Below are positions 89 to 4,289 of a DNA stretch of 4,537 nucleotides, one piece after another (the stretch's first letter is position 1; the number at the start of each line of letters is the position of its first letter). Where the stretch lies: IMG/VR virus record IMGVR_UViG_2724679058_000010. One strand, 5' to 3'. Position numbers and translations under genes: made by a program. This DNA is from a virus. Its lineage: Duplodnaviria; Heunggongvirae; Uroviricota; Caudoviricetes. The notes below the pieces were generated by a model that ran no database searches, had not been told where the DNA came from, and saw only the letters and a list, made by a program, of their open reading frames with translations.

Positions 89-1186
89 ATGGCGTACTAT
101 AACATAGAGAAACGACTAAAATCCGATGGCACACCACGCTATCGCTGTAATGTGATTATCAAAGAAAAAGGTGTTATCACTTACAGGGAAAGCAAAACAT
201 TCCCTAAACATGCCCATGCCAAAACATGGGGTACACAGAAAGTGATGGAATTAGATCTATATGGCATTCCATCATCAAATGCAGTTGACGGACTTACAGT
301 CCGTGACTTACTACACAAATATTTAAATGACCCAAATGCCGGAGGTAAAGCAGGTCGTACTAAAAGATATGTGCTGGAACTGCTTATGGATAGTGACATC
401 TCCGCGATCAAACTATCCGAACTGACAGAAAATGACGTAATTGAACATTGTAGGCTAAGAAACAACGCTGGTGCAGGTCCAGCAACAGTCAGCCACGATG
501 TTAGTTATCTTGGCAGTGTTCTGGATGCGGCCAAACCTGTATACGGAATTAATTACACATCAAACCCGGCGAAAAGCGCTCGTCCATATCTACTTAAACT
601 TGGTTTGATTGGTAAATCAAACCGTCGTAATCGTAGACCAGCATCTGATGAACTGGACATGCTCATTGAAGGCCTTCAACAACGATCTACTCATAAATGC
701 TCAAAAATTCCGTTCGTTGATATCCTCAAATTTTCTGTGTGGTCCTGTATGCGAATCGGAGAAGTATGCCGGTTACGATGGGAAGATCTCGACCAAGAAC
801 AAAAATCTATACTCGTAAGAGACAGGAAAGATCCACGCAAAAAGGAAGGCAACCACATGAAAGTAGCCTTGCTTGGGGAAGCCTGGGATATCGTCCAACG
901 ACAGCCCAAAAAATCGGAATTCATTTTTCCATATAACAGCACTTCTGTTACTGCGGGATTTCAGAGAGTAAGAAGCAAATTAGGTATTAAAGATCTGCGA
1001 TACCATGATTTGCGTAGAGAAGGGGCAAGTCGCTTATTTGAGGCTGGCTTTAGTATTGAGGAAGTCGCCCAAGTTACAGGGCATCGTTCATTAAACGTGC
1101 TATGGCAGGTATATACCGAACTGTATCCGAAATCTTTACATAATCGTTTTGAAGAGCTCCAAAAGAGCAGAAATAAGACCTCTTGA
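89..1186 (+). CDS. int: Tyrosine-type site-specific recombinase / phage integrase
   Basis: 365-aa ORF with a GAGG Shine-Dalgarno at 78-81, 7 nt before the ATG. The C-terminal region has the catalytic-domain pattern of tyrosine recombinases (LRYHDLRREGASRLFEAGFSIEEVAQVTGHRSLNVLWQVYTEL, i.e. HxLR ... GHxS ... Y), most reminiscent by eye of Rci/XerC-type catalytic domains. Which integrase subfamily it belongs to is not resolved. Confidence 0.88.
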   Translation: MAYYNIEKRLKSDGTPRYRCNVIIKEKGVITYRESKTFPKHAHAKTWGTQKVMELDLYGIPSSNAVDGLTVRDLLHKYLNDPNAGGKAGRTKRYVLELLMDSDISAIKLSELTENDVIEHCRLRNNAGAGPATVSHDVSYLGSVLDAAKPVYGINYTSNPAKSARPYLLKLGLIGKSNRRNRRPASDELDMLIEGLQQRSTHKCSKIPFVDILKFSVWSCMRIGEVCRLRWEDLDQEQKSILVRDRKDPRKKEGNHMKVALLGEAWDIVQRQPKKSEFIFPYNSTSVTAGFQRVRSKLGIKDLRYHDLRREGASRLFEAGFSIEEVAQVTGHRSLNVLWQVYTELYPKSLHNRFEELQKSRNKTS

Positions 1187-1247: not shown

Positions 1248-1496
1248 ATGCGTATTGAAATCTGTATAGCCAAAGAAAAAATGACTAAAATGCCAACCGG
1301 TGCTGTGGATGCGTTAAAGGAAGAATTAACCCGACGCATCAGTAAACGTTATGACGATGTAGAGGTGATCGTAAAAGCCACCAGCAACGATGGCCTTTCT
1401 GTTACGCGCACCGCCGATAAAGATTCAGCTAAAACTTTTGTTCAGGAAACTCTGAAAGATACCTGGGAGTCTGCTGACGAGTGGTTTGTTCACTAA
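1248..1496 (+). CDS. dinI: DinI-family protein (DNA-damage-inducible protein I homolog), phage-borne
   Basis: 82-aa ORF beginning [11 protein letters not shown] and ending [16 protein letters not shown], which closely parallels the start and the C-terminal ETWESADDWFV signature of E. coli DinI. Shine-Dalgarno AGAGGGA at 1236-1242, and a LexA box immediately upstream. The gene symbol denotes a homolog, not the chromosomal locus. Confidence 0.85.
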
Positions 1497-1613: not shown

Positions 1614-1901
1614 TTAACGGATCAACATCCAGATCAGCAGACACGCCACCACCGGCACAGCAAAATCCATCAGGCTTGCCACATCCCACGCGCGCGGATC
1701 AAAACCGCCCCACCACGGCATATTCATTCGCTTGCCATGCCCGAACATTTCAATCCAGCGATATTCTGCCTGGGTGTGTTCACGCGCAATGAAGAACGTA
1801 CAACCGGCTATCGCTCCGTAAGCCCAGTTTCCGGTAAAAAGACCAACCAGTATCTGCGCAGCCACAGCACAAAGTGCATGAAGTAAGGGGCTTATATCCA
1901 T
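1614..1901 (-). CDS. Hypothetical small membrane protein (95 aa, about three predicted transmembrane helices), moron candidate
   Basis: ORF preceded by a near-perfect Shine-Dalgarno AAGGAGG (minus strand, 1905-1911), 3 nt before the ATG. Three hydrophobic stretches (LLHALCAVAAQILVGLF, WAYGAIAGCTFFIA, VASLMDFAVPVVACLLIWMLI). No lipobox. GC-rich relative to its flanks. I do not recognise its family. Confidence 0.7.
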   Translation of the reverse strand: MDISPLLHALCAVAAQILVGLFTGNWAYGAIAGCTFFIAREHTQAEYRWIEMFGHGKRMNMPWWGGFDPRAWDVASLMDFAVPVVACLLIWMLIR

Positions 1902-1913
1902 TATTTCCTCCTT

Positions 1914-2192
1914 TCAGCTCCATTCCCGAAGCGGTGTTTCCAGCTCCACGACATAATCAGAGAATACAGAAACATCAAACAAGTCATCAAGAATGCGAAT
2001 GTTGACAAAATAACCATCATTCCGGATACAGACAGGTTCTCCCTCTTCTGTTACCCCTGTTTCTGTGTAGGTGAAACCAATTTCATCAACTAACAGTTTA
2101 TTCTGGAGGTCTTCATCTTCCGCCCAGCCAAGAGATGACAGGAAGGCCTTAAACTGCAGTTTGTCATGAAACTTCAAAGTTAAATCTTTCAT
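1914..2192 (-). CDS. Hypothetical acidic protein (92 aa), translationally coupled to the tail fiber C-terminal segment; possible fiber chaperone/accessory
   Basis: Its ATG (2192-2190) overlaps the stop of the upstream fiber ORF in an ATGA arrangement. The protein is rich in D/E. It has no obvious resemblance to lambda Tfa, which normally ends with a PDIEWPAVP-type motif. Confidence 0.65.
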   Translation of the reverse strand: MKDLTLKFHDKLQFKAFLSSLGWAEDEDLQNKLLVDEIGFTYTETGVTEEGEPVCIRNDGYFVNIRILDDLFDVSVFSDYVVELETPLREWS

Positions 2193-3391
2193 ACGACCTC
2201 TTTTAATTGCCTGTCATTTAATTCTTTATGCCATATGCGGAAATTGCGAATATGGCCAAACAGATGTCGTTCTCCAGTATTCGTCTGCCCTCCAAATCGG
2301 ATATTTTTATCAGCGGTCACGCCATTATATTCACAATAAACTTCATTAACCGCTTTACCATTTGTCACCACATGAAAGTGACCATCAGCTTTTGCAATAC
2401 ATCCAAATGTGGTTTTCTCTGTAAATACATCTGTCGCTGCGCTATTAACATACGAGCCTGAAGGGTTTGACAGACTCATATATAACTTACCACTACCTCT
2501 GTTGATTGCTGCAATTGCTGATTGCCCGGTATTGGCTGCTGCTATATCCCACACGCGGGGTGCGGCGTTTGGTGCAATATCCCAGTTTTTATGAATCTCA
2601 AGTAAAAAAGTAAATGGTAACTTATAAAGATTATTTCTGGTGGGGATACTAACCAAATCACTGGCTCTTGTCGTTGCGCTGCCTCCTGAAATAATAAATG
2701 ATGATACACACGGCCCATTCTCTACTTGTGGGGTGGCAAGATAAATATAGTCACCAGATACTGTTGCCCCACCCTGCTCAGGAGAATACTGTATCTGAGA
2801 GCCTATTTTTAACTCACCATCAATTGCCTGAATCGTTGCCTCTGCAAAAATCCAGCCCGTGGTCTTATCCTTCCTGACTCGTGCCGTAATTCTGCCGGCA
2901 GCACCACCTGTCATATTAATTTCAAGCGTTTGCGTATCAATGTACGCATCGCCAAGAAAAGTTGTTGCACTACCATCATACTTATCAAACCGTATACGTA
3001 ACCTTACCTGTCGTTCTGTTTTAAAACGGCATGAGGTTGTCACGTACTTGTTATCGCCTGAGACATCAACTGACTTTGTTGCAGCAATTGATGCCATATT
3101 AATAGCCGAAGTTTGCCCAACCAGAGAATCGTTGCAGACAAACTTTCCATAAGTAAAACCAAAACTATCCGTCCCGGTTTCGGGCACATCCATGTTTGAT
3201 GACTTCCCCCAGCTGGCTGGACTTTCCGAATTGAGCATGTAGTTCGTTCTTTGTCCCTCAATAAGCAGGCCATCACACTCAAATCGCGGCTCATTAATTT
3301 CCGCCGTTTTCAGTTCGCCAGATTTGTTGATATATGTTGCCGTTGATGCGCGACTGAAATTAACCTGTTTATCACTGGCGACCTGAACCAC
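2189..3391 (-). CDS. Side tail fiber, C-terminal (receptor-binding) segment, with a probable LamG/ConA-like lectin-fold domain at the extreme C-terminus
   Basis: 400-aa ORF. Its frame is open upstream to 3412 (KIAIGDDVV...), and the nearest start is a GTG at 3391 with no convincing Shine-Dalgarno, consistent with a frameshifted continuation of the upstream fiber rather than an independent gene. The C-terminal tail (NIRFGGQTNTGERHLFGHIRNFRIWHKELNDRQLKE) follows the typical LamG closing pattern (F-G-x-I-D-E-V-R-I-Y-N-R-A-L-S-x-x-E-I). Confidence 0.75.
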   Translation of the reverse strand: MVQVASDKQVNFSRASTATYINKSGELKTAEINEPRFECDGLLIEGQRTNYMLNSESPASWGKSSNMDVPETGTDSFGFTYGKFVCNDSLVGQTSAINMASIAATKSVDVSGDNKYVTTSCRFKTERQVRLRIRFDKYDGSATTFLGDAYIDTQTLEINMTGGAAGRITARVRKDKTTGWIFAEATIQAIDGELKIGSQIQYSPEQGGATVSGDYIYLATPQVENGPCVSSFIISGGSATTRASDLVSIPTRNNLYKLPFTFLLEIHKNWDIAPNAAPRVWDIAAANTGQSAIAAINRGSGKLYMSLSNPSGSYVNSAATDVFTEKTTFGCIAKADGHFHVVTNGKAVNEVYCEYNGVTADKNIRFGGQTNTGERHLFGHIRNFRIWHKELNDRQLKEVV

Positions 3392-3405: not shown

Positions 3406-4251
3406 CTATTTTTTATAGCCCGGAGAAAAACCCGCAATCATATCCAGTGAATCGTTAAACGGTATCCACACATCAGGCAGCGGCGGCACTATATTCGCAT
3501 AGGGCTCTGCAGTCACTTCCGCTGCGGCTTCTGCGCGGTCTGCCGCCTTTTCAGCTCGTGTCGCTGCCGACAGAGCCTCATCCTTTTTCTGCCCGGCCTT
3601 TGTTGCGTCTGCTGCAGCCTCCCGCGCTTTTGTGGTGGCGACTCCGGCATTTTCAGCGGCTGACTCTGCATTACGGCGGGAAGCCTCTTCACTGTCTGCG
3701 GAGGCTTCTTCTGACGCACGGGCATTTGTCTCTGAACGTTCTGCCGCTGTTGCTGCGTTTTGTGCGGCTGTTTTTGAAGAAGCTGCCGCTTTCGCGCTGT
3801 TACCTGCATTCGTCTCTGATGTTTTCGCCGCGTTCCTGGACGATGCCGCTGCTGTTTCTGATTTCTTTGCTGCCGCTGCGCTCTGAGAGGCGGCTTCAGC
3901 GTTGCGTGCCACATCCTCCACCATTACCTCAAAACGACGCAATGCCTCCGGCATGACATCCTCTTCCGTCATGGCACCCAGAAAATCATTCAGCGTCCCC
4001 GGCTTAGAATCCTCATACACGGTGATGGTCCCGGCATGTGAAGGCGGAAAACCTTCAACCAGCAGGATAACGCTGTACTGGCCATACTCGACATCCATGC
4101 TGTAACGTCCGGCTTCATCCGGATTTTCTGAGGCCACCGTGTTCACCACAACCGTGGTGCTGTTACGTTTTGCTTTGAGCTGAATGGTGCAGTTCTGTAT
4201 CGGTTTTCCTGCACCGTCTTTCAGCACACCTGAGATTTTTACTGCTGCCAT
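3406..4251 (-). CDS. stf: Side tail fiber protein, N-terminal anchor domain plus Ala-rich shaft (lambda Stf-like)
   Basis: The translation from the ATG at 4251 (MAAVKISGVLKDGAGKPIQNCTIQLKAKRNSTTVVVNTV...EAGRYSMDVEYGQYSVIL...FPPSHAGTITVYEDS.PGTLNDFL) is nearly collinear with the lambda Stf N-terminus. It is followed by the Ala/Ser/Thr/Glu-rich shaft (AAKTSETNA..., AAERSETNARASE) also found in lambda Stf. The ORF track starts at a GTG at 4257 (MDM...), but the ATG at 4251 is preferred because it has a GGAG Shine-Dalgarno 5 nt upstream and matches the lambda start. Confidence 0.9.
   Translation of the reverse strand: MAAVKISGVLKDGAGKPIQNCTIQLKAKRNSTTVVVNTVASENPDEAGRYSMDVEYGQYSVILLVEGFPPSHAGTITVYEDSKPGTLNDFLGAMTEEDVMPEALRRFEVMVEDVARNAEAASQSAAAAKKSETAAASSRNAAKTSETNAGNSAKAAASSKTAAQNAATAAERSETNARASEEASADSEEASRRNAESAAENAGVATTKAREAAADATKAGQKKDEALSAATRAEKAADRAEAAAEVTAEPYANIVPPLPDVWIPFNDSLDMIAGFSPGYKK
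3409..3414 (-). other. A6 homopolymer (T6 on plus strand) at the frame junction between the two tail-fiber segments
   Basis: Minus strand reads CCG GGC TAT AAA AAA TAG. The downstream frame is offset by -1, so one extra A would fuse the two ORFs. Confidence 0.6.
3486..3900 (-). repeat. Low-complexity Ala/Ser/Glu/Thr-rich coding repeat region (fiber shaft)
   Basis: Protein-level repetition of AAxxSETNA / AAxxAxxAA units. The GCN-rich DNA produces long spurious ORFs in other frames and on the opposite strand. Confidence 0.6.
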
Positions 4252-4262
4252 ATCCACTCCAC

Positions 4263-4289
4263 AAAAAAGCCCGCCTGAACCGGCGGGCT
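4263..4289 (-). terminator. Putative intrinsic terminator downstream of the lom-like gene
   Basis: On the minus strand: 8-bp GC-rich stem AGCCCGCC / GGCGGGCT with a 6-nt loop, followed by TTTTTT (plus-strand A-run at 4263-4268). It lies between the lom stop and the stf ribosome-binding site. Confidence 0.55.

Follow-up and report, generated by a model that had tools for sequence, protein, structure and literature searches.

Background

Among the closest described counterparts of the gene analysed here is the Tfa/Caudo_TAP family (PF02413; lambda Tfa, Mu U/U' and P2 G). There, too, a small gene lies right after the side-tail-fibre gene and is co-expressed with it, and its product is presumed to aid folding of the fibre tip and possibly to stay bound to it. 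The intramolecular chaperones (Peptidase_S74; K1F endosialidase, T5 pb1 and rV5 gp41) fill the same functional slot and are found at the same loci. In three-gene loci our gene lies between the proximal and distal fibre genes, where the gene for a joint component would be expected, and this recalls the branched fibres of DT57C (LtfA/LtfB) and the T4 gp35/gp36 hinge. Finally, cor and llp are examples of small accessory genes that adjoin receptor-binding genes in T1- and T5-like phages.

The gene studied here follows the side-fibre gene in a stretch of phage DNA of 4,537 nucleotides, hereafter the window. Its family is already catalogued (PHROG 1361, listed function unknown) and is not peculiar to the window prophage. 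The initial annotation had described the product as an uncharacterised protein; this holds in that no characterised family matches it, although the family itself had been catalogued.

Results

Gene order in the window

The window covers the right end of a lambdoid prophage of E. coli, integrated beside dusA. Full-length matches at 98-99.9% are present in eight complete E. coli genomes, and strain 1290 shows the neighbouring genes. In the matching genomes the integrase lies directly beside dusA, and the element is therefore a dusA-inserting prophage. The features used below are as follows.

89-1186, plus strand: tyrosine integrase (Pfam; dusA adjacency, L001 4963-6000).
1248-1496, plus strand: DinI-like gene, after the integrase (Pfam).
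1614-1901, minus strand: gene for a 95-aa hydrophobic protein, PHROG 1443 (listed function unknown), 12 nt after the small gene.
1914-2192, minus strand: small gene, PHROG 1361 member with a 92-aa acidic product (ORF list, ATG start).
2189-2192, minus strand: ATGA overlap of the small-gene start with the fibre-gene stop (direct sequence reading).
2197-2202, minus strand: Shine-Dalgarno-like AAGAGG within the end of the fibre gene, 4 nt 5' of the small-gene ATG.
2189-3391, minus strand: fibre-tip module, the C-terminal ~400 aa of the fibre and upstream partner of the small gene (Pfam, NCBIfam, PDB and PHROG profiles).
3406-4257, minus strand: fibre N-terminal ORF of 283 aa, with a lambda Stf-type anchor and an Ala-rich coiled-coil shaft (Pfam phage_tail_N, E 3e-69; Perceval alignment).
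3409-3414, minus strand: A6 homopolymer, one base short, which splits the fibre into ORFs of 283 aa and 400 aa.
4316 onward, minus strand: end of the Ail/Lom gene.

The order is J, lom, stf and then the small gene, which agrees with the initial placement of the gene where lambda has tfa. Between the lom end and the fibre start lies a strong terminator-like hairpin (4268-4289, minus strand), the 8-bp stem of which has 7 G-C pairs and is followed by a T-run. PGAP annotation of near-identical genomes also shows an 81-nt remnant of a capsid-protein pseudogene at about 1493-1573 on the minus strand. The gene for the 95-aa hydrophobic protein, which has no Pfam or PADLOC match, closes the fibre operon in two- and three-gene lambdoid loci and is absent from virulent phages, which makes it a candidate for a membrane moron associated with lysogeny.

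The small gene and its product

The small gene is on the minus strand, a point on which the initial annotation was silent. Its ATG occupies 2192-2190 and the TGA of the 400-aa upstream ORF occupies 2191-2189, which is the overlap with the fibre stop codon that had been described initially. The product has a mass of 10.7 kDa and was rightly called strongly acidic, with a pI of 4.17 and 20 Asp and Glu residues against 8 Lys and Arg; the pI of 26 other members of the family ranges from 4.05 to 4.8.

The ORF is a genuine gene and a chance ORF is ruled out, because four observations agree. The protein matches the PHROG 1361 HMM with E 3.2e-42 (residues 1-91 on profile positions 1-91 of 92), homologues were found in 143 phage records (first tblastn query), pairwise dN/dS is ~0.3 both among two-gene lambdoid alleles and between distant lineages, and the AlphaFold2 model is confident (pLDDT 89.9). 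The model is a small alpha/beta fold with strands at residues 2-8, 33-39, 42-47, 53-57 and 61-67 and helices at 11-20, 27-32 and 74-77. We had considered a disordered conserved C-terminal tail that would serve as a docking motif, but the mean pLDDT of 85 over residues 81-90 led us to reject it.

The tip module and the frameshift

The fibre had initially been called LamG-tipped. A LamG-like match to module residues 274-395 does stand, at a borderline level (Pfam Laminin_G_3, E 9e-6, 26.3 bits vs a cut-off of 27.6), but a frameshift of the fibre gene had been missed. Residues 12-257 of the module resemble the RcGTA head-spike fibre Rcc01080 (PDB 6TB9, E 2e-9). The module also matches NCBIfam NF048003 (GTA_spike_fiber, E 3e-15), and its ORF matches profile positions 393-793 of PHROG 1419, listed as 'tail protein'. 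In RcGTA there is one Rcc01080 subunit per head spike, and the head fibres enable attachment to capsule polysaccharide (PMC7296036). The BASEL passage on IrisVonRoten Gp22 calls the domain that corresponds to the LamG-like part 'galectin-like' (PMC11990801). Found in 208 phage records, the module is carried on varied anchors, namely the lambda Stf N-terminus, the T5 Ltf N-terminus, a T1-like N-terminus and a 1478-aa rV5-like fibre.

The A6 tract of the window is A7 in 35/35 other related loci that carry the tract, among them Perceval, which has an intact fibre of 688 aa. The window fibre gene is frameshifted by the loss of one A; a true inactivating mutation, slippage at the homopolymer and a sequencing error are all conceivable causes. 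Since the fibre gene is broken, coupled expression of fibre and small gene may not occur in this particular prophage.

Breadth of the family and database searches

Proteins of the PHROG 1361 type range from 85 to 110 aa. They are present in lambdoid, T5-like, T1-like, Nonagvirus and rV5-like phages, that is, in at least five phage groups, and in prophages of Chromobacterium, Aeromonas and Plesiomonas; the named relatives stem, besides these three genera, from E. coli and Shigella, the taxonomic breadth being taken from cluster names. Across 26 diverse members D3, L6, D36, N64, R66 and R89 are invariant, and the signature reads MxDxxLxF ... DxIG ... G[YW]xVNxR ... PxRxW, the last element lying close to the C-terminus.

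The initial annotation held that the protein is not a Tfa and named a clear match to Tfa or another known family as the finding that would overturn its view. No such match emerged from Pfam, NCBIfam or the profile search of PDB sequences. In Pfam neither the window protein (E up to 1) nor 25 diverse relatives had a match, and Caudo_TAP (PF02413) and Peptidase_S74 (PF13884) in particular matched none of the 26 proteins. PADLOC likewise gave no match for the window protein. At this level of comparison the protein has no homology to known chaperones. The model is also without a convincing fold relative: Foldseek against the PDB returned nothing at E below 0.001 and a weak resemblance to trimeric PII-type ferredoxin-like proteins (TM about 0.4), and in the BFVD fold search only uncharacterised phage proteins of similar size matched.

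A profile search of 1.84 billion representative proteins returned only 80 clusters. A few long proteins with PKD and TPR repeats came up as apparent relatives and were discarded as artefacts, with 2-13 bits per repeat and a significance that arises from summing. These matches being repeat-inflated, there is no natural fusion of the small protein to a fibre protein in that library. No function for the family is mentioned in the BASEL, DT57C, rV5, AKFV33, SIA3lw and Cronobacter Drexlerviridae papers or in the Eligo preprint.

Linkage of the small gene to the module

In 66/66 loci the small gene either shares bases with the stop codon of a module-ended fibre gene (4-nt ATGA or 1-nt TAATG overlap) or directly adjoins it; these loci are the window, 52 IMG/VR prophage contigs, E. 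coli genomes and 12 phage genomes. EmilHeitz, FFH1 and PhiR47_1, which carry the module and are not among the small-protein matches listed, have a divergent family member in the same position, and four distant members in public assemblies (P0089, P0109, P0115 and P0102) each follow a module-ended protein. The genetic linkage to the module is obligate: in the 66 loci and the four divergent contexts the small gene was never found away from a module-ended fibre gene.

A prophage contig of Chromobacterium amazonense (L072, 1691-5297) has two tandem module-ended proteins of 679 and 416 aa. A single small gene comes after the second and none lies between them; holin and amidase genes directly follow. 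This arrangement is consistent with a placement rule of 'after the last module' rather than 'between two fibres', and it fits a factor that acts on modules in trans.

One locus is interrupted. In phage 4A7 (L062 4571-7237), deposited as a complete genome, an IS element with three transposase ORFs lies between the fibre gene and the small gene and has cut off the last ~43 codons of the fibre gene; this fits side fibres being dispensable in the laboratory.

Covariation and allele replacement

The small proteins of the window and Perceval are identical, and those of Perceval and 1H12 are 90% identical. The 1H12 module is only ~40% identical to that of the window. The variable cassette spans fibre residues ~275 to ~660 and continues into the small gene for its first ~25 codons, and between the Perceval and 1H12 types only boundary boxes and the last ~35 residues of the module are conserved. 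Since small proteins that are 90% identical accompany modules that are ~40% identical, the small protein tracks the conserved boundary boxes and core and is independent of the variable receptor-binding parts. KarlJaspers combines a 1H12-like first domain with a window-like LamG half, and its small protein is 52% identical to that of the window.

The rV5-like phages provide a second comparison. The rV5 locus (L077, gp41-gp40) encodes a 1272-aa fibre, gp41, with an intramolecular chaperone at its C-terminal end (PMC3606486), and no small gene follows. At the same locus EmilHeitz (L060, bas49_0026-0028) has a 1478-aa module-ended fibre (gp26) and a 110-aa family member (gp27), which is without the usual C-terminal RxW motif. 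The module together with the small gene replaces the chaperone-ended fibre allele, in a natural swap. Phage rV5_ev146 resembles EmilHeitz in having a module-ended fibre and a small gene. The 'ev' phages come from an infant-gut coliphage study, and we take them to be natural isolates more probably than laboratory-evolved recombinants; the latter reading of the name was set aside, and no argument here rests on directed evolution.

Presence and absence of a distal fibre

Most virulent phages and some lambdoids have a second (distal) fibre gene downstream, which the window does not have. It starts 9-12 nt downstream in T5-like phages (IrisVonRoten and FFH1), Nonagvirus (JenP1) and T1-like phages (tunus and KarlJaspers), as well as in the lambdoids 2G7b and PhiR47_1 and the E. 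coli E1 and BCE049 prophages, the last two occupying the same dusA site as the window prophage. The distal fibre has a conserved N-terminal peptide of ~26 residues (M-x-T-x-T-x-IP-x-DI-x-x-LK) and an S74 intramolecular chaperone at its C-terminus.

The small gene is independent of this distal fibre. It is kept where the distal fibre is absent in the window and in the lambdoids Perceval and 1H12, as well as in the Chromobacterium prophage L072. The rV5-like phages likewise keep it without a distal fibre, no ORF with the docking motif having been found in the 50-kb structural region of EmilHeitz, and contig L074 has a small gene and no S74 fibre within its 2.5 kb. Purifying selection preserves the gene at loci that lack a distal fibre, and the primary partner is therefore the module.

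Discussion

Proposed role of the small protein

We propose that the small protein is a dedicated accessory protein of one type of tip module, the GTA-spike-like plus LamG-like type; we hold this tentatively, as a reading that could well be right but falls a little short of an even prospect. The suggestion in the initial annotation of a new kind of chaperone for the fibre is, after the comparative analysis, the best-supported reading. The protein would be made together with the fibre through the overlapping start codon and its own Shine-Dalgarno sequence and would remain a separate polypeptide. It would act on the conserved core of the module, in folding or assembly, and may stay bound, while the variable receptor-binding surfaces would not be acted on. 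Its job would then be that of Tfa for lambda Stf or of the C-terminal chaperone of the T5 and K1F type, carried out by an unrelated alpha/beta fold. Both the folding or assembly activity and the conserved-core target are inferred.

We favour this accessory role because the small gene is retained without a distal fibre, because of the allele swap at the rV5 locus, because of the gene order in L072 and because the small protein tracks the conserved boxes. Three points count against it. The 1:1 coupling and the position between fibre genes would suit a structural subunit equally well. The RcGTA fibre is single-subunit and no small partner is mentioned in the paper on it (PMC7296036). Finally, RefSeq labels the IrisVonRoten orthologue, as a matter of annotation, 'tail fiber protein'.

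A structural joint or socket

Instead of aiding assembly, the small protein could be retained in the virion, where together with the module core it would form the socket for the ~26-residue N-terminal peptide of the distal fibre. The outcome would be a branched fibre with two receptor-binding units, of which the distal one is interchangeable. The small gene does lie between the proximal and distal fibre genes, with the fixed spacing of 9-12 nt, in T5-like phages, Nonagvirus, T1-like phages and some lambdoids, and this makes the joint role a serious rival, even though we consider it rather unlikely. Among the records listed, T5-like phages are the only ones with homology to the distal fibre that starts at residue 1 and so takes in the first ~26 residues, which also agrees with a joint. 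In EC100, VSe12 and phiAPCEc03, T5-like phages with such matches, the module or the small gene was confirmed; in DT571/2, ManiWeber and the Gordonclarkvirinae the homology starts at residue 27-49. The gene overlap suggests stoichiometric co-expression, the RefSeq label of the IrisVonRoten orthologue points the same way, and the weak resemblance to PII-type trimers would, speculatively, suit a three-fold axis.

However, purifying selection acts on the small gene where there is no distal fibre to be joined (the window, Perceval, 1H12, the rV5-like phages and L072), and in L072 the gene comes after the last module protein and not between both fibre proteins. The BASEL passage on the predicted Gp22-Gp24 fibre complex of IrisVonRoten also presents it without mention of Gp23 (PMC11990801). 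Virion proteomics of SIA3lw covered gel bands of 19 kDa or more only (PMC12752171) and that of AKFV33 covered four gel bands of 32.6-121 kDa (PMC3326045); a 10.7-kDa protein lies below the first range and outside the second.

The two roles could also be combined. The module core and the small protein would then be a plug-in socket, of a kind not described before, for interchangeable distal fibres, common to siphoviruses and lambdoid prophages, and the small protein would be essential for tip assembly also where the tip stands alone; the glycan-binding tip would double as the docking platform for the ~26-residue peptide. Taken as a whole, docking platform included, this reading is doubtful.

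Other readings

The small protein could otherwise be a cofactor retained at the tip, bound to the LamG-like and GTA-spike-like domains, that shapes or masks the glycan-binding site. In this it would be like the gp38 adhesins of the T2 type or Mu Tfa bound at the tip. Its partner module has a homologue that binds capsule polysaccharide (PMC7296036) and makes up the hypervariable, host-range-like portion of the fibre. A specificity cofactor or adhesin would be expected to diversify, whereas the small protein shows no covariation with the variable module parts: proteins that are 90% identical serve modules that are ~40% identical, and the window-like LamG half in KarlJaspers is paired with a small protein that is only 52% identical. 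We consider this role improbable.

A function unrelated to the fibre is very improbable, whether as a moron, as a superinfection-exclusion or immunity protein (the initial annotation had allowed for an immunity or anti-receptor protein) or as a regulator carried along in the fibre operon. Such a role has a precedent of position in cor and llp. By eye, however, the sequence shows neither a signal peptide nor a lipobox or membrane segment, and PADLOC gave no match. The gene belongs to the late fibre operon also in strictly virulent phages, its start overlaps or abuts the fibre gene, and it was never found apart from a module-ended fibre gene in the 66 loci and four further contexts.

Significance

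Tips of this module type are the hypervariable part of the lateral fibres of many coliphages and Salmonella phages, and are therefore probably directed at O-antigen or capsule. Phages used for biocontrol and for engineered delivery vectors are among those with such tips. Should folding of the tip, or its carrying of a second fibre, depend on the small protein, swaps of receptor modules would fail unless the 0.3-kb gene is moved as well. An accessory role, if true, would add a new, sequence-unrelated family beside Tfa, gp38, gp57A and the intramolecular chaperones, and an informed label could replace 'hypothetical protein' in about 200 phage records and in many E. coli prophages. Confirmation would give a new sequence family of a known functional kind; the small gene is a modest, testable lead and not a surprise.

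Comparison with known systems

The small gene shares with tfa its place immediately downstream of the fibre gene (66/66 loci), and differs in that the protein has no match to PF02413. At 92 aa (85-110 aa in the family) it is about half the size of Tfa, as had been pointed out initially, compared with about 175-195 aa for the latter. Moreover, Tfa pairs a conserved N-terminal domain with a C-terminal domain that is specific to the tip and covaries with it, whereas the small protein is 90% identical across divergent modules.

The small protein differs from the Peptidase_S74 chaperones in being a separate polypeptide, with no homology to them and no autoproteolysis motif; the S74 domain is instead carried by the optional distal fibres of the same loci. 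Although the position in three-gene loci recalls the branched fibres of DT57C, no small gene lies between ltfA (gp108) and ltfB (gp107) in that phage (PMC10713586). Unlike the T4 hinge proteins, the small family persists without a distal fibre, and it has no homology to gp35 or gp36. The lipobox or membrane segment that marks the Cor/Llp lipoproteins is absent by eye from the small protein, the N-terminus of which (MKDLTLKFHDK) is charged and has no hydrophobic stretch. With PHROG 1361, finally, there is no difference, the window protein being a full-length member of that family.
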